64,000 bases of DNA from Nitrospirota bacterium (lineage in GTDB: Bacteria; Nitrospirota; UBA9217). The stretch covers positions 224,001-288,000 of the forward strand of contig CAWFSF010000002.1 in NCBI GenBank assembly GCA_963818475.1. Reading direction: 5' to 3'. Positions 38,320 to 62,407 of this stretch are shown piece after piece. The position numbers were made by a program, and so were the translations under genes. Under the pieces are notes generated by a model, which was not told where the DNA came from, did no database searches, and worked only from the letters and a program-made list of their open reading frames with translations. Position 1 is the stretch's first letter. Each line of letters opens with the position of its first letter.

Positions 38320-40362
38320 TTAGTGTTTTACAGGAGCTGCATCTTCAACCAGCTGAGCGTAGGCGACCTTCTTCACTTCCCACTTGTCAGTCGCAAGGTC
38401 GTACTTCGAGTTCACGAAGCACTTCCAGTTGGTGTCGTCCACCAGGTCGAAGTCGCCGCGATAGTAGTAGCCCGGATACCGGGACTCCTCACGGAACAGG
38501 ATGTGCCGTGCATGGGCCTCCACGGAGAGGATGCGGTGATAGTTCTCCCAGCAGCGCATCAGCTCGTGCAGGTTGCTTGCTGCCATCTTGGAGGCGTCTT
38601 CCTTCAGAACCTGGAGCTGCCTCAGACCTTCGTCGAGCATGGTCTTGGAGGTCATGTACCAGGTGCCGATGCCGCCAAAGTACTCGTCCGAGATCTTCTG
38701 CAGACGGGTCTGGAGCATCTTCGGCTTGATGTAGTTCGGGTTGATCTCTACAGCCGTGGTGTAGGTCTTGTGCTTCTCGTACACCTCGAAGGGCAGATAG
38801 AGCTCGGCGGCCAGATGGTCCTCCGTCTCCTTGATCGTCGGGGTGTAGTTCGGGTTGTCGAGCATGAACGCGATCGCGCTCTTTGCTGCGATGCGGCCCT
38901 CAGCATGCGAGCCCGAGGAGAACTTGTGGCCTGATGCGCCGCAGATGTCGCCGCACATAAAGAGGCCCTTTACGGTGGACGAGCGGTTGTAGTTGCCGGC
39001 CACCCATTTCTTGTTCCACTCTTCCGGCGCGCCGAGATCATCGGGACCGCAGCACCAGAAGCCTGCACAGCCTGCGTGCGAACCGAGGAGATAAGGCTCG
39101 GTCGGCATGATTTCGGAAGGAACTTTATCCGGCTCGATGTTCTTGGCAGCCCAGAGGCCGGCCTGGCCGATGGCCATATCGAGGAAGTCTTCCCATGCTT
39201 CTGCCTCGAGGTGCTTCACCTTCTTGGCGCCCTCTTTGTCGCCGAGCTTCTCCTTGAAGGTCTTGTTGATCGCTTCCATCGCGTGATGGGTGTTCATGAG
39301 GATCGGGCCTTTGCCGAGCTTCATGTCGCGCATCATGAGGTGGTTGCGGATGGCCGTGCCGAGGTTGTCGACATACTTGCCGTACTTGGCCTTGGCTTCT
39401 GCCAAGTGCTTCAGGATTGACGCAATAGTCTTCACCGAGGCTGTTGGTTGCCTTGGCCTTGAAGAACAGGAACCATGCGCCGACCGGGCCGTAACCGTCC
39501 TTGAAGCGGGCGGGCACGAAGCGGTTCTCCATCATGGTCAGCTCTGCGCCGGCCTGGAGGCCGAGAGCGTAACCGGAGCCGGAGTTCCATACCGGGTACC
39601 AGGCGCGGCCCTGGCCTTCCTGGGTCGACCGGGGACGGAACACGTTCACGGCGCCGCCGGCTGCCAGAACCATGGCTTTTGCCTTGAAGATGTAGATCTT
39701 GTTCTCACGGACGCTGAATCCGGCCGCTGCTGCAACGCGATTCGGCTCCTTGGCATCATTGTAGAGCTTCACGATGAACACGCGCTCGTAGTGGTTGGTC
39801 TTGACGCCGGTTGCTGCACGGTTGGTCTCGAGGGCCTTCTTCGCGGCTTCCGCCACGATGACCTTGTAGGACTCGCCGTTGATCATGATCTGCCACTTGC
39901 CTGAACGGACCGGCTTGCCGCCGTCCTTCAGCATGGTCTTTCCTGCTTCCTTTGCCTGGAAACCGTCGAGAGAGAAGCCGTCATCGCCCATCTTCCAGAT
40001 CGGCAGGCCCCACTCCTCGAAGAGCTGCACGGAATCATCAACGTGACGGCCGAGGTCGTAGATCAGGTCCTCACGGACGATGCCCATGAGGTCGTTCCGT
40101 ACCATCTTTACATAGTCCGCCGGATCATTGTCACCCATGTAGGTGTTGATGGCCGACAGACCCATGGCAACGGCGCCGGACCGGTCGGTCGCGGCCTTGT
40201 CAACCATGGTGATCTTGATCTTCTTGGGGTTTGCCCAGCGGGCGCCTTCAAACGCTGCGCCGCAGCACGCCATACCGCCGCCGATCAGGAGGAGATCGGT
40301 TTCGACCGTCTTCGATCTGCAGGCTTCTTGCAGAACGAAAACGTACAGGTTTCTTTTTCCAT
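38320..40362 (-). CDS. aprA: Adenylylsulfate reductase alpha subunit (frameshifts near 40315 and 39405)
   Basis: RSGAVAMGLSAINTY, WQIMINGESYK, FVPARFKDGYGPVGAW, EPYLLGSH, GHKFSSGS, ESRYPG. Confidence 0.96.
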
Positions 40363-44321: not shown

Positions 44322-45571
44322 ATGAATTTAGTAGAACTAAAAGGCAAGGAGCATCGCCGAGCTTACCGCCATGGCGGACGAGCTGAAGATCGAAGGCGTC
44401 AGCGGCTTGCGCAAGCAGGAGCTGATCTTCGCCATCCTGCAGGCCCAGACCGAAAAGAACGGCATGATCTTCGGCGAGGGCGTGCTCGAGATCCTTCCGG
44501 ACGGCTTCGGCTTCCTCCGGGCGCCGGATTACAACTATCTGCCCGGCCCGGACGACATCTACGTATCGCCTTCCCAGATACGCCGGTTCAGCATCCGCAC
44601 CGGCGACACGGTTTCCGGCCAGATCCGGCCGCCCAAGGAAGGCGAACGCTACTTCGCACTGCTCAAGGTTGACGCCATCAACTATGAAGACCCCGAGATA
44701 TCACGGTCCAAGATCCTTTTCGACAACCTGACCCCCTATTATCCTGAAAAAAAGATCAAGCTCGAACATTCACCGACCGACTATACGACCCGCGCCATGG
44801 ACCTCGTTACTCCCATCGGCATGGGCCAGCGCGGCATGATCGTGGCGCCGCCGCGGACCGGCAAGACCATGCTGCTCCAGGCCATTGCCAAGGCCATCCT
44901 GAAGAACCATCCCGACATCAAGCTGATCGTGCTCCTGATCGACGAACGGCCCGAAGAGGTCACGGACTGGGCGCGCCAGGTCAAAGGCCGAGATCATCAG
45001 CTCCACCTTCGACGAACCGCCGCAGCGGCATGTGCAGGTCGCGGACATGGTGAGCGAGCGGGCAAAGCGCCTGGTGGAGCACAAGAAGGACGTGGTGATC
45101 CTGCTCGACAGCATCACCCGCCTTGCCCGGGCGCATAACGCCATCATTCCGGCCTCAGGCAAGGTCCTCTCCGGCGGTCTGGACGCGAATGCGCTCCAGC
45201 GGCCGAAACGGTTCTTCGGCGCCGCCCGCAGCATCGAGAACGGCGGCAGCCTCACGATCCTCGCAACAGCGCTCGTGGACACCGGCAGCCGCATGGACGA
45301 CGTGATCTTCGAAGAATTCAAGGGCACCGGCAACATGGAACTCCACCTCGACCGGAAGCTCGTGGACAAGCGCGTGTTCCCGGCCATCGACATCAACGCC
45401 TCCGGCACCCGCAAAGAAGAGCTGCTCGTGGACAAGGACGACCTGAACCGCATGTGGGTGCTCCGCAAGGTCCTGAACCCCCTGTCCACCGTGGAAAGCA
45501 TGGAGTTCCTGCTGGACAAGCTGAAACAGAACAAAACAAACAGGGATTTCCTGGATTCCATGAACAAGTAG
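44322..45571 (+). CDS. rho: Transcription termination factor Rho (frameshifts near 44350 and 44985)
   Basis: [48 protein letters not shown]. Confidence 0.97.
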
Positions 45572-48976: not shown

Positions 48977-50225
<1,249 letters not shown>

Positions 50226-53573: not shown

Positions 53574-54761
53574 TCAATAAAGAGAAGAACCGGCAGGACC
53601 TGTCAAGGAATCAGGAGCAGGTCCTGTCTGCGGCGCAGCCGCCGGTTTAATGGCGCCGAAGAGGTTCGGTTCGCCATTGCGAAAACCTGCCGTGAAATAG
53701 AGCGTATCAGAGGGGCCTGCCAGACCGTCATTTCCAAACCCCAGTCCATGGAGCCCGGGAATAATGATCGGAGTTCCTCCCCGCGCTGGCAGGAACCCGG
53801 CAAAGAGACCGCTTTCCTCGTCAAAGGCCGCTATCCTGCCGCTGCCGGAATTTCCCACGAGCAGATGATTGCCGAATTCGCCGAACCTGTCGGGCGCCTG
53901 TGCAATGCCCCAGGGCGCGTTCATCCAGGGCCCCTGCTCAAGCCTCATGACGAGTTCACCCTCGGTATCGAACACATCGACATAACCCGCTCCCTCTCCT
54001 GAAGCGGCATGGCGCGGATCTACGGCCTGGGCTGCAAAGGTGACGTACAGGAGGTTATTGATGTTCTGAATGTTGAAGGGCGCAAATCCGTCAGGAATTC
54101 CAGGATCGGTAAAGGCATGAACGGGAAGAAGGAGCAGGCTGAAGTCCCCATCAAAAACGTCGATCCTGTTTTGACGGAAGTTTACTGCATAGAGCCTGTT
54201 TCCGTCCTCAGCCTGTGCGATGGCGATGCCGGTATAGGCTGCGTCCGCTGAGTTGTCCACGACCAGGACAGCGGAATCGCGGTAGACGTCGCTGTTCCAA
54301 CCCTCGATCGTTCCGTCCCGGGTAGCGACCAGAAATTCTGCCGGATGATCGGGAGCAAGCTCGAAGTCCTTCGTACCGTTATAAACGATGCCCACTGGTG
54401 CCGGGTAGTCGTAGCGGCGGCCGGGATTTTCAGGAATTGAAATGATCAGCGGCGACAATCCTGGAAAGGATACTCCGTCTCCGTTGTAAGGCGTTACGCG
54501 TCCCCTGCCCTCATCAGCTACCCGCCACGGACCGTCAGGCGACCTTGCCATGCCCTGGGGATTCAGAAGGCTCGTATCGAAATTCAGCGTCCAGATCGCG
54601 CTGTTCGAGATAAGATTTATCGCATCGTACGCTGCAGAGGTCGATTGAGCATCTGACCATTTTGGGCTGGCCGCGATGAGCATCGAAATAAAGAAAAGCA
54701 TCAAATGCCGTGCAGTTCGCGCAATCATAACCATAACTCCAGATCGCTTTCGATCGACCAT
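53574..54761 (-). CDS. TIGR03118-like secreted beta-propeller protein
   Basis: LLNPQG, P.GIVYNGT, ATRDGTI.GWN, FAPFNIQNI, GAGYVDVFD, MNAPWG, LLVGN.G.G.I, LYFTAG. Confidence 0.75.
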   Translation of the reverse strand: MVDRKRSGVMVMIARTARHLMLFFISMLIAASPKWSDAQSTSAAYDAINLISNSAIWTLNFDTSLLNPQGMARSPDGPWRVADEGRGRVTPYNGDGVSFPGLSPLIISIPENPGRRYDYPAPVGIVYNGTKDFELAPDHPAEFLVATRDGTIEGWNSDVYRDSAVLVVDNSADAAYTGIAIAQAEDGNRLYAVNFRQNRIDVFDGDFSLLLLPVHAFTDPGIPDGFAPFNIQNINNLLYVTFAAQAVDPRHAASGEGAGYVDVFDTEGELVMRLEQGPWMNAPWGIAQAPDRFGEFGNHLLVGNSGSGRIAAFDEESGLFAGFLPARGGTPIIIPGLHGLGFGNDGLAGPSDTLYFTAGFRNGEPNLFGAIKPAAAPQTGPAPDSLTGPAGSSLY

Positions 54762-54973: not shown

Positions 54974-56212
54974 ATGAAAAAATGGCTGGCCATAATGACG
55001 GCAGCCGGCTTGCTCCTGTATCCTTTCGCGGCCATTGCAGCAGACTACGGGTCGCAGCCCTCGCAAGAACAACAGGTCCCTCCTGTAGCCCAGACGCTGG
55101 TACGCGAAGGCGATTTCGCTATCAAGCTGGCGGCTGAACTCGATCTGGGCAAACCATCCGATGAAGCAACTGCAGAAGATATGCTGACGGCTGCGGGCGT
55201 GGTCCCCGCGAACGGATGGCTCTCGGACTACCCGATGACCCCCGAGATCATCGGCCAACTGAAAGATGCGGTATCCAAAGCAGCTGCAGAAGGCAAGCTG
55301 AAGATGAGCACTGATGAAGCGGTCAAGGGCCTTTATTACCTCACCGCGCAGATGAACCTTCCTACACCGGCCGGATCGGAAAGTCAGTCACAGGAGGGGA
55401 CTTCCGCGGCGCCTCCCGCGGTCGTGAACAACTACTACTACGATCAGGGACCTCCGGTCATAACCTATTACCCGCCGCCCTACGATTACTGGTATCTGTA
55501 CAACTGGGTGCCCTATCCGGTCTTCTGGTTCGGCTTCTGGTTCCCGGGATACTATATCTGCCATAATTTCACCACCGTGGTAGTGAGCCCGGTTTTCTTT
55601 GACCGGAGGGTGGTCACGAACCATGTGATAGACCCGGTGACCCGAAGAGTCGCGATCGTCGATCCCGTCGCGCGGACGAGCAACGGCGTCAGACCAACGA
55701 CCGTTCTTCGAACAGCCGACGGAAGGACATTCGGCAGCCTTTCCGAGATGAGAAGGTCGACGGGCAGCCTGGTTACGAAGCGTCCGGAATCACGGACCAT
55801 GACCAACAGCGCTTACCGGGGTGGAAGTTTTAGTACACGCGAGTCACAGCAAGGTGCTGAAAGCATCTACCGGAGAAGCATCGACCGGACCCATTCCGCA
55901 CCAGCGGGCAGGTTAAGTTCGCAGGATGGCCGGGTCGGATCATACAGCCCGGCAGGACGGAAGATGGGTGAAGGGCAGCGGTACACAGCGCCCGCTCCGT
56001 CGGGGAGATCGTACCACGGACCGACGACCCTGAGGGAACAACGGCAGGCAGCGCCTCGTATGCCGGAGCGATCATATAATAACTATAACTACGGCGGATC
56101 GTGGCAAGGTGGGGACAGATCGTATTCAGCCCCGCGAGTGCCGTCGAGGACCTTCACTGCTCCGGAGCTACGAGGCATGGGGCAGGAAAGAGGTGTAAGG
56201 CGCGGCTTCTAA
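54974..56212 (+). CDS. Secreted hypothetical protein with Tyr/Pro-rich segment and Arg/Ser-rich tail
   Basis: AAGGAG SD, signal peptide ending AIA, 412-aa ORF followed by terminator. Confidence 0.75.
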   Translation: MKKWLAIMTAAGLLLYPFAAIAADYGSQPSQEQQVPPVAQTLVREGDFAIKLAAELDLGKPSDEATAEDMLTAAGVVPANGWLSDYPMTPEIIGQLKDAVSKAAAEGKLKMSTDEAVKGLYYLTAQMNLPTPAGSESQSQEGTSAAPPAVVNNYYYDQGPPVITYYPPPYDYWYLYNWVPYPVFWFGFWFPGYYICHNFTTVVVSPVFFDRRVVTNHVIDPVTRRVAIVDPVARTSNGVRPTTVLRTADGRTFGSLSEMRRSTGSLVTKRPESRTMTNSAYRGGSFSTRESQQGAESIYRRSIDRTHSAPAGRLSSQDGRVGSYSPAGRKMGEGQRYTAPAPSGRSYHGPTTLREQRQAAPRMPERSYNNYNYGGSWQGGDRSYSAPRVPSRTFTAPELRGMGQERGVRRGF

Positions 56213-56591: not shown

Positions 56592-58525
56592 TTGCCGCAC
56601 AAATTACCAGAACGGAGAAAATTCTTGAAAACATCTGTGAGGATCAGTATCAGTGCCGCCATTACCTTCTGCCTGACTCTATCCGGCGCGCCTGCGCTCG
56701 CGCAAACAGCCGAGGAAAAAAGTTTCCTCTCGTTGTATTTCAGCGAGGAAGAGCTCGTGGTCCAGTCCGCGACCAGGAGCCCGCAGGCGCTGTCGCGGGT
56801 CGCGGAGAACATGACCGTCGTGACCGCGGCAGAGATCGAGCGCATGAACGCGCATACGCTCGCGGATGTGCTGAACACGGTCCCGGGGGTGGAGGTGGCG
56901 ATGATCGCCGGGCCGGGGTCCGCGTCAAGTATCGGTATCCTTGGATCAACGCCTGCTCACGTAACTGTTATTCTCGATGGGGTGGTGATCAATGATCTTT
57001 GGGGACCGAGGGCGGAAATCGGCAATATCCCGGTGCAGAATATCGAGAAGATCGAGATCGTGAAGGGGCCGGCGTCATCAGCATGGGGTTCGGCGCTCGG
57101 CGGCGTGGTGAATGTCATTACCAAGACCGGCAGGGTAGTGGACCAGGGGGGCGTGCTGTCCGGCTCATACGGCAACGCTACATTCGGCGATTTTCGCGCT
57201 GAGGTGCGCGGCAAAGCAGGACAGGTTCGGCTATTACCTGAACGCTGGGCAGGCTCCAGTCCAGGGATTTTACACCCAGCATCGAGCTCTCGAACAATAC
57301 CAATGCCTACGCAAAGCTGTCCTACGACCTCACGGACAAGACGGACATCAGGTTTTCATTCGCATACATACAAAAGAAAGACGAAATCCCCTACCCCGAT
57401 GAAATCGACGTAAATCCAGGGCAAAATCTTCAATCGACCATTGCGCTTAACACCAGCCTGGCAAACAACATGGACCTGAATATTTCCGCATGGGCACTCA
57501 ACAATTATTTAAACTCCCGCTGGATTATCATCAGCACGGGAGAGTCTTCCGATCACAATGCCGCTCTCACAGGCCACGGCGCAAGCGTGCGGCTGACCTG
57601 GAAGACGGGACAGCAGACCATTGTGGTTGGGGGCGAGGCTGATGAAAAGGAAACTTCCGTTCCTCCTTTCGTGCTGAATGGGGTCATTCGGAAGCAGGCG
57701 ATCTATGTGAATGATACGATCGCTTTTGACAAGCTCACGGTGATCCCCGGGATCAGGTTCGAAGACACGAGCTCGACCGGTGGTTTTACCGCCCCGAGTC
57801 TCGGCATCACATACGCCCTGGGGAATGACACCATCTTCCGGACCTCTGTTGCACGCGGGTTTAACACCCCCGGAGCGGGCGCTTCCCTGGCGAGCGCTTC
57901 ATTTACCGATTCGGGTGGCACCACTACCTGGCTGCCGAACCCCGATTTGAAGATGGAGACTGTCTGGTCCTATCAGGCAGGCATCGAATCCGCGGCAAAG
58001 AAATACTTCTGGCTGAAGCTTTCGCTCTTCAGAAACGATATTAGAAACCTGGCGGTGGCGGTGACGCAAGAAACCGCACCCTTTACATTTACAACGCAGT
58101 ACGTTAACTTCGGCCGCAACCGTCAGGAGGGTGTGGTGCTGGAGACCAAAACCATGCCAATCTACCACACCTCTCTGCACGCGGCAGCCGAGGTCCTTAC
58201 GATAAAAGACTTGTATACCGGAGAAACCATCGCGGGCCAGCCGGTGCAGGTTTATGATGTCGGATTGAGCTACGATGACAAGGAGTCGTTCAATGCCGTG
58301 CTTCAGGGAAGACATATCAACTGGAACTTAAAAGATCCAAGCATTCAGACGCGCAAGACCATGATTGTGGACCTTACCGTGAACAAGAGGGTCCATCAGG
58401 TGAAGGCCACCAGTATTTCGATTTTTGCGAGCGGCCACAATCTGCTGAACACAAAGCAGATCTGGTCGACTTCCTGGCCGAACCCGGAACGCTGGTATGA
58501 GGCTGGGCTGAGGTATGATTTCTGA
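56592..58525 (+). CDS. TonB-dependent receptor (frameshifts near 57215-57300; start uncertain)
   Basis: Plug motifs VVQSATR, LADVLNTVPG, IEKIEIVKGPASSAWGSALGGVVNVITK; barrel motif NPDLKME; C-terminal YEAGLRYDF. Confidence 0.9.
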
Positions 58526-58574
58526 TCGAGGCGGCAGCTTTGCCGCTATCTTGTTTTTCTGGGGGGTGACGAAC

Positions 58575-58673
58575 ATGCTGAAACGCATCACTGTTGTAAA
58601 AAGGGGCGTCGGGAAGTTCGGCGGCGCCACAATTGGTTGCTGTATCGCTGGATCAGGACAGAATAAAAAATAG
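58575..58673 (+). CDS. 32-aa putative RiPP precursor (geopeptide-like), MLKRITVVKRGVGKFGGATIGCCIAGSGQNKK
   Basis: Translated by hand, below ORF-track cutoff; GGGGGTG SD upstream; Cys-Cys core; directly upstream of a SPASM radical SAM gene. Confidence 0.8.
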   Translation: MLKRITVVKRGVGKFGGATIGCCIAGSGQNKK

Positions 58674-58689
58674 ACGTCCGCTTTGACCT

Positions 58690-58721
58690 GAAGGAGGGTG
58701 AAAACCCTCCTTCCCCTTTTT
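58690..58721 (+). terminator. Hairpin between precursor peptide and maturase genes
   Basis: gaaggaggg-tgaaaa-ccctccttc followed by ccc and T5. Confidence 0.65.
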
Positions 58722-58741
58722 CAGGGAGCTATTCATAAACC

Positions 58742-60039
58742 ATGCCTTTCTCGACCTACTCCATACAGATCGATCATCCTGATGACCCTGATCAGGTGGT
58801 CCTTTTCTCGACCAGGACAGCTGCAACCGTCAACCTCCATCGCGACGTAATCAAGGACATCGAGGCAGGGCGCCTTTCTTCCGACGAGCGAGAAACACTC
58901 AGCGAACTCGGCATCGTCGTCCCGGATCTGAAGGACGAACGCGAGGAGATGCGTTCATACGTTGACGATATGAATGCTGCGAGCAAAACGCTTACGGTTA
59001 CCCTGGTCATGAGCCTGGACTGTAATCTTGCGTGCCCCTACTGTTTCGAAGGGACGCGCAAAGGGAAATATTATCTGTCTGAAGAAACTGCTAATGATTT
59101 TCTTCGCTTCATCGGCAACAGGCTTACGGAACTGGATGAACTTAATATCAGATTTTATGGCGGCGAACCTCTTCTGAGCTTCGACATGATCTACCGCATC
59201 GCCCGGGAGCTGTCAAAGTCCGCGTGCGAAGCACAAGGTAACATTCAGCTTCGGTTTCGTCACAAACGGAACGCTCTTGACTCGACCTGTTGTGGAGAAA
59301 CTTAAACCTCTCGGACTGAAGTCCGCATATGTCACTCTCGACGGACCACGGGAGATGCACGACATGTCGCGGCCCTTCAAAAACGGCAGCGGGTCGTTCA
59401 ATACGATCATCGGCAATCTCCGGAACGTCTCCGACCTGATCGAGCTCCATCTCGGCGGGAATTATTTGCAGGCGAATTACCGGGAGTTCCCGCGCATGCT
59501 CGACTTCCTGATTGCGCAACGGCTTGGGCCTGACGTGGTCTCCTTAATGAGCTTCAGCCCCATCATGAATGAGGATGCGAAGTTCTGCCCCGATTATCAC
59601 GACGGCTGCTCGAATGAAAACGAACCCTGGGTCGCGGAGGCCGGGCTTTACCTCAGGCGGGAAATACTTGCCCGCGGCTATCGCACCGATGAAGTGCTGC
59701 CAACAGTCTGCATGCTTGAACGTCACGATCATCTGGTCGTCAACTGGGACGGCGTGCCTGTACAAATGCCCGGGCTTGATCGGGCGAAAGGAATATGGCG
59801 CCGGCACGCTAAAATCGGGTTTGCTTGACTACACCGCGACTCACGACCTCGGAAACTGGAAGAACGAGGAATGTCTTAGCTGCAAGTATCTTCCGCTCTG
59901 CTTCGGCGGATGCAGACAAACGAAATTGATCTGCGAGGGCACGATGAAAGGCATTGAGTGCAAAAAAGAATTTTTCGACAAGACGCTTGAAGCGCTTGTG
60001 CTGCAGGACATAGAATACAGCAAGGCACCCGAAAGTTAA
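58742..60039 (+). CDS. Radical SAM/SPASM peptide maturase (frameshifts near 59215 and 59755)
   Basis: CNLACPYC, FYGGEPLL, VTNGTLL, VTLDG; SPASM VCM...LYKC...CLSCKYLPLCFGGC...C; ~80-aa N-terminal RRE-sized extension. Confidence 0.9.
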
Positions 60040-60101: not shown

Positions 60102-61023
60102 ATGAATATCGTTTCCCGGAACACGCTTCAACCTTCCCCTGAAAACGCTGCTTATCGCAGCCCCGCTCGTGGTGCGTCTGTTCGCTGCCCCGCTCCCAGC
60201 CCTTGCCTCTGACGTTCTTATTATAAAAGACGCCGACATAAAACTCTACCAGGAGGCCATCCAGGGGTTCCAAAAAACGTGCGACTGCAGCGTGCGCGAA
60301 ATGGATCTTTCGGACCTGGATGCGATCGAGACGGCTCTCAAAGCGAAGCCGGACGCTGTTGTTGCTTTGGGTACGCAGGCGCTCAGAAGAACCAGGACGA
60401 TCAGGAATGTTCCGCTGATCTATGCCATGGTGATGCCCTCCGAGGCCGCCGAAGCCACCGGAGGGAATGTGTCCGGCGTAAGCATGGACATTGCTCCGGC
60501 AGAATACCTCGCCGCCATGGCAGGCCTGTTCCCCGACGCAAAAAGGATCGGAGTACTCTTTAACCCGGACCAGACCGGTCCGTACGTCAAGGATGCTTCG
60601 CTTGCTGCGCGTAAAAATGATATCTCGCTGATCCTGAAGCCGGTCAGCAATGCGCGCAAGGCGCCTGCGCTTCTCAATGAACTGCGGGGAAAGATAGACG
60701 TCTTGTGGATGCTGCCGGACACGACGATCTTGAATTCCGAAATGGTCGATGCCATACTGCTGTTTTCCTTCCAGCATAACGTTCCGGTATTTTCCTTTTC
60801 AAAAAAATATGTGCAAATGGGCGCTGTGGCTGCACTAACCATCGACGCCCGGACTATAGGCAAACAGGCAGGTGAACTGGCCCGGAGCCTGCTCCAGAAT
60901 GGCAACGGTCCCCTGCGGGCCTATGCCACGAACCCCCGTCTGATCGTAAACACGAAAGTCGGCGCAAAATTAGGAGTACGGATCAATGGCGAACTTTTCC
61001 AAAATGCTGAAAAAGTGGAGTAA
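60102..61023 (+). CDS. ABC-type periplasmic substrate-binding protein (probable frameshift near 60115)
   Basis: Signal ending ALA; PDAVVALGT.A, NVSGVSM, KRIGVLFNP, DVLWMLPD, YVQMGA..A, GKQAGELA. Confidence 0.8.
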
Positions 61024-61027
61024 CGGC

Positions 61028-62407
61028 ATGCATGTTTTCGGCAGAAACAGCCTGGGTTTCAGGCTGATCAGCGTATTCATTGCCATTATCGTGATCGTGA
61101 TCTTGTCGATTTCGGTTTTCTCCATCGCCCGATGGAGGAACAACGCGCTTGCGACGCTCAGAAGCAAGGGCGCGACCATGACCAGGCTCCTTTCTGTGAG
61201 CGCGCGGATCGGCATTTTTTCCGAGAACGTAGACCAGCTCAAAGAAGCTGCGGACAGCTATATCGCAGTACGGGATGTTCTTTTTATCGGCATCTACAAT
61301 GCCGACAGGAAGCCGCTGTACCTCTCCGATCCGGCTTTTCCCGGCAGCGACACCATTTCGGAAAGCGGAGCAAAACCTCGAAGGGAGCCGGCTGCGCAAA
61401 CTGAAGGCCTGACACAGGAATTCTCAAGGCCGGTAACGCTCACCCTGTTTTCGAATGAAGCAGCGTCGCTCTACCTCGGCGACGGCGATACGGGTTCGAA
61501 AGAGCAGGTGATAGGATACGTTAAGCTCGTGCTGGGCCAGGAATCCTTGCGCCATGAGATCAATAGGATCCTGGTGCAAAATGCGATCATCGCCCTTCTC
61601 TTCATCTGCCTGAGCATCGTGATCGTGTCCCTCTGGGTGAAGAAGATCACGAAACCTCTTGAAACGCTGACACGGGAAGTCAAGGCCCTGGGCAAGGGAA
61701 GCGATGTCCCGTACGTGCCGGTCCAGAGCATGGATGAGGTCGGCAGGCTCGCAACCGAGTTCAACTCCATGCTCGATGAACGAAAGATCGCGGAACAAAC
61801 TCGCAAAAATATCCTGAGAGACCTGCATGACGGCGTCGGCGGCATGATGACGAACATCGTCATCCTCTCGGAGATCAACCGGGCCAAGCCGCTGCCCGAG
61901 GAGATCGCCAAAGCATTCGCCACGATTTCCGCGCTGTCACGCGACGGTATTGCCGAGATCAGGAGCCTGATCTATAGTCTCGACCGGAACGATCTGAACT
62001 GGCCCTCGCTTATCGCGGAGATGAGAAGCCTGGGCTATAAGATGACTGAACCCCATGCGATCGTTTTCGAAATGACCTCGAAGGTGGAAGAAGGTGTCGC
62101 CGAGCCGGGAAGTTTACTTTGTATGCACCTTTTCAAGATCTATCGCGAGTCGCTCACCAACGCCATCAAACATGCTCAAGCAGCGAAGATCCGCGTGGAA
62201 ATGTCCGTCAGGAATGAGCGGATCCTGCTCGCTGTCCGTGACGACGGGCGGGGCTGCAATACCGCAGAACTGTCCGCTGAAGGCAGGGGCTTCGCCAATA
62301 TGAGATCGCGCGCTGCTGAGATCGGCGGTACCGTGACGATTAACGGCGGCAACGGCACCTGTGTTTCCGTCGACATACCGCTTCCGATAACGTCCGGGCC
62401 GCACTAG
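61028..62407 (+). CDS. Membrane sensor histidine kinase (HAMP, HisKA_3-type, HATPase)
   Basis: Two TM helices, DEVGRLATEFNSM, RDLHDGVG, ESLTNAIKHA, DDGRG, GRGFANMRSRA. Confidence 0.9.
   Translation: MHVFGRNSLGFRLISVFIAIIVIVILSISVFSIARWRNNALATLRSKGATMTRLLSVSARIGIFSENVDQLKEAADSYIAVRDVLFIGIYNADRKPLYLSDPAFPGSDTISESGAKPRREPAAQTEGLTQEFSRPVTLTLFSNEAASLYLGDGDTGSKEQVIGYVKLVLGQESLRHEINRILVQNAIIALLFICLSIVIVSLWVKKITKPLETLTREVKALGKGSDVPYVPVQSMDEVGRLATEFNSMLDERKIAEQTRKNILRDLHDGVGGMMTNIVILSEINRAKPLPEEIAKAFATISALSRDGIAEIRSLIYSLDRNDLNWPSLIAEMRSLGYKMTEPHAIVFEMTSKVEEGVAEPGSLLCMHLFKIYRESLTNAIKHAQAAKIRVEMSVRNERILLAVRDDGRGCNTAELSAEGRGFANMRSRAAEIGGTVTINGGNGTCVSVDIPLPITSGPH

Follow-up and report, generated by a model that had tools for sequence, protein, structure and literature searches.

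A putative geopeptide-type precursor gene with a basic leader beside a TIGR04280 radical SAM maturase in Nitrospirota

The peptide family TIGR04229 (geopeptides) and the radical SAM maturase family TIGR04280 form a pair that is known only as computational database models; in a full-text literature search, judged from titles and abstracts, no paper on the geopeptide TIGR04229/TIGR04280 system was found. TIGR04229 is a model of 22 positions, in which membership means a score of at least 30 bits. The architecture that goes with it is a hydrophobic strand-x-x-G, a spacer and a Cys-Cys pair, and its expected place is that of a short peptide directly 5' of a TIGR04280 gene on the same strand. Among solved structures, the best match for the maturase profile studied here is 5wgg (105 bits), which we take to be the thioether-forming enzyme CteB. 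An earlier note on the window, by which the whole analysed stretch of 64,000 nucleotides is meant, had drawn attention to a 32-aa ORF next to a frameshifted maturase gene and had likened the two to this pair. In the following, the ORF, its maturase and the genes linked to them are compared with their relatives in two phyla.

The peptide gene and its relatives

On direct reading of the sequence, the ORF proved to be intact and preceded by a Shine-Dalgarno-like element, and its translation, MLKRITVVKRGVGKFGGATIGCCIAGSGQNKK, contains both Gly16-Gly17 and Cys22-Cys23, just as the earlier note had described it (Table 1). The same frame extends upstream to an ATG at 58515, which would give a 52-aa form overlapping the end of the TonB-receptor gene; this start was rejected, as the frame is closed upstream in the closest orthologue, L119, with which the start at 58575 is common. 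Neither the 32-aa nor the 52-aa form is present in a collection of 15 billion proteins, which fits the description of the peptide as unannotated. As a working proposal taken from the complex model (see below), the peptide can be divided into a leader of about residues 1-15 (MLKRITVVKRGVGKF) and a core of about residues 16-32, which includes the cysteine pair.

Table 1 Features of the cassette around the peptide gene (positions in the window)
Feature	Position	Strand	Details
TonB-dependent outer-membrane receptor, two frames	56592..58525	+	Plug part 56592-57413, barrel part 57470-58525
Short terminator-like hairpin with T-run, 7 pairs	58530..58547	+	Directly after the receptor stop codon; largely conserved in L119
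Shine-Dalgarno-like GGGGGGTGA	58561..58569	+	Ends 5 nt 5' of ATG 58575; identical in L119
32-aa precursor peptide ORF (putative)	58575..58673	+	ATG 58575, TAG 58671-58673
10-bp GC-rich hairpin followed by CCCTTTTT	58690..58722	+	Candidate attenuator/terminator between the peptide and maturase genes
Radical SAM/SPASM maturase, TIGR04280, three frames	58742..60039	+	Frames 58742-59305, 59277-59828, 59569-60039
PF04392 (ABC_sub_bind) periplasmic binding protein	60102..61023	+	PF04392 89.4 bits; signal-peptide-like N-terminus
Sensor histidine kinase	60986..62407	+	sCache_4, HAMP, HisKA_3, HATPase_c

The earlier note had named a conserved ORF upstream of orthologous maturases as a check on its reading, and such an ORF was found. 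A single regular expression (hydrophobic strand, Gly or Ala, 6-45 residues, Cys-Cys and 4-20 residues to the stop) was run on the 450 nt upstream of the maturase genes of 52 related loci, on both strands; the leader-to-Cys-Cys motif was present on the same strand at 43 loci and on the reverse strand at 0/52, while shuffles lead one to expect 0.5 loci. The motif-bearing loci span Nitrospirota and Desulfobacterota. Six of the nine loci missed by the expression carry a variant that can be recognized by eye: the spacers are long and Lys-rich in L045 and L046, the gap to the maturase is larger in L057, L063 and L064, the Gly is lacking in L062, and a single Cys is found in L063 and L064. At the other three (L050, L078 and L033), no peptide variant was seen by eye upstream of the maturase. 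The maturases themselves were collected by a scan of genome contigs, which gave 80 loci, about 40 of them with true members of the TIGR04280 family; identity is 50-64% for the Nitrospirota loci and 38-50% for the Desulfobacterota loci, and a maturase above the TIGR04280 cut-off occurs in 13 of 61 genomes (the window's own and 60 relatives).

Some of the related peptides are unusual in their own right. In a subgroup comprising L024 (1257-1427), L026 (2851-3009), L028 (174-338) and L072 (3380-3547), as well as L045 and L046, a Lys/Ala/Thr-rich, histone-H1-like spacer of 20-40 residues stands between the leader strand and Cys-Cys. The Desulfurivibrionaceae peptides with the single cysteine, L063 (3520-3606) and L064 (3615-3701), carry it in the context N-C-A-P-G and lie 296-391 nt from the maturase.

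In an alignment of 48 peptides that spans the two phyla (A2), the second Cys is kept in 48/48 sequences, and the first Cys and Gly11 are each kept in at least 90%. Only the Cys pair and one Gly are conserved and, hence, no residue can be pointed to as the acceptor of a cross-link. The closest orthologous locus, L119, lies on a metagenome contig and encodes a maturase that is 85% identical to that of the window; its peptide is identical at 20 of 32 positions, with the same Shine-Dalgarno element, start, length, stop and hairpin and with no indels. Between the two peptide genes, substitutions alter the amino acid in 12 codons and leave it as it was in 6; they hardly touch the leader, and the tail varies freely. 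A comparison with contigs of other sequencing runs (Logan contigs of relatives, 88-99% alike) gave a similar picture: the flanks align at 88% or more, the peptide stretch has diverged at the same length, and the bin 58510-58710 is almost uncovered at 88%. In a search for RNA records, none was listed for the 6-kb stretch. Divergence at constant length of this kind is how a genuine precursor gene behaves when it evolves fast. The 68-nt spacer between the peptide and the maturase folds at -24.4 kcal/mol (z = -3.6), with the stem kept in L119. At 42 of 44 loci, the corresponding spacer folds with z < -2, which agrees with an attenuator by which the ratio of peptide to enzyme is set. It is very probable that the ORF is a real precursor and the substrate of the adjacent TIGR04280 enzyme.

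The relation to TIGR04229, which the earlier note had put forward, stood in part. The partner is indeed a TIGR04280 enzyme, and the window peptide aligns column for column in A2 with residues 8-28 of L069, that is, with model positions 1-21; L069, from Geotalea toluenoxydans, is a bona fide member of TIGR04229, scoring 40.5 bits across the stretch from the strand to Cys-Cys. The window peptide itself, however, gave no match to TIGR04229 even at E ≤ 10 and by score lies outside the 30-bit membership limit. A match at E ≤ 10 was obtained for 16 of the 48 aligned peptides, and among 13 peptides that were scored singly only L069 passes; the Nitrospirota peptides reached 14 bits or nothing. In architecture and place, the window peptide agrees with the geopeptides, since it shows the hydrophobic strand-x-x-G, the spacer and the Cys-Cys pair and is encoded directly 5' of the TIGR04280 gene on the same strand, with 68 nt from stop to start. 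The failure of the model is attributed to the charge of the leader, which is acidic in Desulfobacterota (VLDEG, VLEEG) and basic in Nitrospirota (VLKKG; VVKRG in the window peptide). Six-frame searches with TIGR04229 gave nothing above the cut-off in the peptide's own genome, in 61 relatives or in 401 genomes of the phylum. Such a search is insensitive for a model of 22 positions, and these blanks say little, as the search of the own genome also missed the L004 peptide, to which hmmscan gives 13.8 bits. Hence, the window peptide is treated as belonging to a basic-leader Nitrospirota sister branch that works like a geopeptide, and not as a TIGR04229 member by the model.

The maturase and its frame breaks

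The window maturase belongs to TIGR04280 by every test except the single-ORF score. Its three frames score 164.5, 204.5 and 120.9 bits against this model, which sum to 489.9 bits, and no single ORF reaches the cut-off of 400; the third frame also matches the SPASM model TIGR04085 with 34.5 bits (cut-off 27). The intact, one-frame maturase of L119 scores 527.3 bits against TIGR04280 (cut-off 400), and the two intact paralogues in the same genome score 584.6 and 562.5 bits. The CxxxCxxC, Gx4C and Cx2Cx5Cx3C motifs are invariant across the family, and the window maturase holds the radical SAM motif (CNLACPYC, in the first frame piece) together with the full set of SPASM cysteines. Of the 99 columns that are invariant in the family, it retains 91, all cluster cysteines among them; seven hold another residue, and the last coincides with a break. 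After TIGR04280, the L119 maturase is matched best by CefB (NF038107, 173.1 bits), TIGR04463 (157.6 bits), PapB (NF047865, 125.9 bits) and the SCIFF maturase (TIGR03974, 93.7 bits), all of which are maturases of Cys-containing peptides. Elsewhere in the family, the maturase ORF of L048 (4001-6079) has 693 aa, about 260 residues above the family norm, with an extra C-terminal part, and the maturase stretch of L069 (4001-5279, in the G. toluenoxydans draft) has two stops in one frame, this copy being either broken or mis-assembled.

It was observed that the window maturase is interrupted by two breaks, both +1: one at about 59213-59237 and the other at about 59757, where an additional C stands in the stretch that is DG-x-LYKCPG in the family. 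Both are covered by a contig of one other run (X1; 58998-59888), which is 2 nt shorter than the window. The receptor gene contains extra bases as well; the one at 57213 is missing from contigs of at least three other runs, and at least two of these are also without the one at 57246. A further +1 shift was found near 60125 in the binding-protein gene, which has one extra base relative to L119; its main ORF is 60169-61023 and its likely start is 60102. Breaks of the same kind are present outside the cassette, where the genes for Rho (44371-45571), a MurA-type enzyme of the EPSP_synthase family (48977-50225) and an FAD flavoprotein (38323-40273) each appear as two overlapping ORFs through a +1 shift, and the paralogous cassettes of the genome likewise have split receptor, binding-protein and kinase ORFs. 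The uniform +1 direction and the presence of essential genes (Rho and the MurA-type enzyme) among those affected point to insertion errors of the assembly, and this is the most likely origin of the breaks in the maturase, receptor and binding protein. Thus the frameshifts that the earlier note had ascribed to the maturase are present in the sequence, but are most likely an artefact of assembly, the L119 gene being intact, and the cassette is probably functional in spite of them.

Linked genes, proposed mechanism and its rivals

The receptor was assigned by its PF07715 Plug (76 bits) and PF00593 barrel (112 bits) domains. Among 61 related loci, a homologous receptor barrel occurs at 51, a homologue of the binding protein at 46 and a homologue of the kinase at 22. 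When all ORFs of the 34 loci of at least 6 kb were clustered, only four real families were found to recur, namely the receptor (34 of 34), the maturase (34), the PF04392 protein (32) and the kinase (25); the other large clusters were judged by their coordinates to be antisense shadow ORFs. A conserved exporter or peptidase was absent from these 34 loci, no such cluster occurring in more than 7/34, and an inner-membrane ABC permease or ATPase was likewise absent among the conserved clusters. The genome (4.66 Mb in 7 contigs) contains three copies of the cassette of TonB receptor, peptide, maturase, PF04392 protein and kinase. Besides the window maturase it has two intact TIGR04280 genes, and a TonB receptor gene and a small ORF for a matching peptide stand upstream of each. 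In L126, one of the paralogous cassettes, a response regulator with REC and GerE domains comes after the kinase. Three of the four PF04392 genes of the genome adjoin a TIGR04280 gene.

Several other genes near these cassettes or related to them were noted. The fourth PF04392 gene, which lies outside the window (G000:C2:392766-393473, minus strand, 133 bits), is the only one not beside a TIGR04280 gene. A group II intron reverse transcriptase/maturase ORF (RVT_1 and GIIM; L126 294-1628, on G000:C6) precedes the receptor gene of the second cassette by about 1.4 kb. In the window, 54974-56212 on the plus strand encodes a protein of 412 aa with a signal-peptide-like start and a middle part rich in Tyr, Pro and Trp, to which no Pfam or NCBIfam family corresponds; beside it, on the minus strand (53574-54761), lies the gene of a TIGR03118 family protein (285.9 bits).

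The L119 maturase was modelled together with the L119 peptide, and the complex reached a score of 0.75 (median of three runs, best control 0.01), a mark attained by 58 of 80 solved complexes and by 2 of 110 mismatched pairs; alignments made in this analysis served as input, and the score may reflect memory of solved complexes of a leader with an RRE, such as 5wgg. At least 70% of contacts are common to the runs, and the pLDDT of the partner is 55-58. In the model, peptide residues 5-11 pair with maturase strand 27-33 and touch residues 49-57, and residues 17-26, which include Cys-Cys, are placed near 319-324, 342, 384 and 390, beside the invariant SPASM cysteines. Recognition of the leader through an RRE is thus seen in the model of the L119 pair, which shows likeness and not binding.

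Taken together, a geopeptide-type precursor is considered the fairly probable overall explanation of the ORF. According to this mechanism, the leader, M-x-K-R-I-x-V-x-K-x-G, would add a β-strand to the RRE-like N-terminal domain of the TIGR04280 enzyme and, as the model suggests, would thereby thread the invariant Cys-Cys core towards the SPASM clusters. The enzyme would then modify the pair by radical chemistry, most likely with the formation of one or two thioether cross-links of the sacti- or ranthi-type, as in the nearest characterised relatives; by this analogy, the chance of thioether formation at Cys-Cys is rated as even. The conserved hairpin between the two genes may allow the message of the peptide to outnumber that of the enzyme, as its structure suggests. 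The steps after modification are drawn from gene linkage: the product would probably act outside the cytoplasm, would cross the outer membrane through the linked TonB receptor and would be bound by the PF04392 protein, which lacks a transporter and could report to the sCache_4 kinase. Such a loop of export, re-import and sensing is proposed tentatively, and what is counted against it is that no conserved exporter or protease is found nearby for exit or for removal of the leader. It is similarly doubtful, though possible, that the cassette gives diderm anaerobes a closed circuit of peptide signalling, in which the modified Cys-Cys peptide would be released, would re-enter through its own TonB-dependent receptor and would be bound in the periplasm by the PF04392 protein, which would switch the kinase and a LuxR-type regulator.

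Other readings of the locus concern either the state of the gene or the chemistry of its product. It could be supposed that the ORF is untranslated and that the conservation reflects an RNA of the maturase operon, either a transcribed leader or a regulatory one, as two conserved hairpins flank the ORF; this is hardly probable, however, since it is the amino-acid sequence that is conserved while the DNA has drifted apart, relatives being too different in the peptide region to align at 88% and yet of the same length there, and since the frame, Shine-Dalgarno element, start and stop are kept without indels, the peptide architecture is the same across two phyla and the motif occurs on the reverse strand at none of the 52 loci. 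Decay of this copy of the cassette is also improbable, though less so; in this case, the peptide gene would have outlived its own enzyme, receptor and binding protein. A pseudogene set would agree with the frame breaks, of which the maturase has two and the receptor and the binding protein have others, as well as with the change in 7 of the 99 invariant maturase columns and with the presence of two other cassettes in the genome, by which this copy could be redundant. At least five breaks fall within about 3.6 kb, which is seemingly denser than in the rest of the window, where ORFs of 880, 754 and 744 codons are intact, and for this reason real decay is still given a small probability. Against it stand the +1 direction of all breaks examined, which is the same kind as in the essential Rho and MurA-type genes, the split ORFs of the paralogous cassettes, the contigs of other runs without the extra bases, the intact 85% orthologue, and the 91 invariant residues that are kept, every cluster cysteine among them.

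The precursor and its enzyme may also stand while the chemistry is not that of a thioether; Cys oxidation like that of anaerobic sulfatase-maturating enzymes (anSME), epimerisation or a C-C link could take its place, and the product, as a metal-binding peptide (metallophore), might enter through the TonB receptor once it is loaded. The two cysteines are alone invariant, the acceptor position is not conserved, and solved anSME structures align with almost the full maturase profile (4k37, 52 bits, positions 94-420). TonB receptors typically import metal chelates, and such a receptor is linked at 34/34 loci. On the other side, peptide cross-linking is the activity of the closest named families and of the best-matching solved structure, and the lack of an ABC permease or ATPase among the conserved clusters fits sensing better than nutrient uptake. 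This group of readings is, on balance, judged unlikely, the metallophore role being the main alternative to a sensed-peptide product. The earlier note had further suggested that the Gly-Gly is a cleavage site, which would make the peptide a double-glycine-leader precursor of the bacteriocin type, cut after Gly16-Gly17 by a C39 peptidase-ABC exporter to release ATIGCCIAGSGQNKK. The pair is present in the window peptide, but L119 has Gly-Ser at this place and L032 has neither, no Gly-Gly column exists in the 48-peptide alignment, and no peptidase or exporter cluster is common to more than 7 of the 34 loci. Neither a conserved GG, GA or GS motif nor, among the 34 loci, a conserved C39 peptidase-ABC exporter was thus found, and this part of the note was rejected, its probability being very slight.

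Peptide, maturase, TonB receptor, orphan binding protein and kinase form a single unit, of which this one genome has three copies. Should the proposed loop be true, each of the three diverged cassettes would serve as a private channel; Gram-negative bacteria would then have a novel form of quorum or kin signalling, and TonB receptors a function that is new for them. Where the linkage reflects function, the cassette would make signalling by peptides, or uptake mediated by them, accessible to study in anaerobic diderms; where it does not, the locus would be one more uncharacterised radical SAM RiPP. The charge-reversed leader of the Nitrospirota escapes the current peptide model and, as a consequence, such precursors stay unannotated.

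Comparison with known systems

The CteB-type maturases of SCIFF, sacti- and ranthipeptides have in common with the window enzyme a radical SAM core, a complete SPASM domain and a domain at the N-terminus that binds the leader; among solved structures 5wgg matches best, and the modelled docking of the leader strand resembles that class. The relationship is, however, distant, as the SCIFF maturase and PapB models give 93.7 and 125.9 bits against cut-offs of 425 and 340, and their substrates contain several spaced cysteines, unlike the single Cys-Cys pair found here. CefB and TIGR04463 are the next-best models, match near full length and have, by name, Cys-containing peptide substrates, but the scores lie far under the cut-offs of 600 and 525 and the substrate patterns differ.

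The closest likeness is to the geopeptide system TIGR04229/TIGR04280. The maturase family is the same, the peptide gene agrees in position and orientation, and the peptide shows the hydrophobic strand, the Gly, a 10-residue spacer, Cys-Cys and a short tail; the linkage to a receptor, a binding protein and a kinase is also shared. The differences are that the window peptide fails the TIGR04229 model, that its leader is basic (KR...KRG) whereas that of the Desulfobacterota members is acidic, and that the host lineage is Nitrospirota and not Geobacter. What is new here is, hence, not a new kind of system but a basic-leader Nitrospirota variant of the geopeptides that the public peptide model misses.
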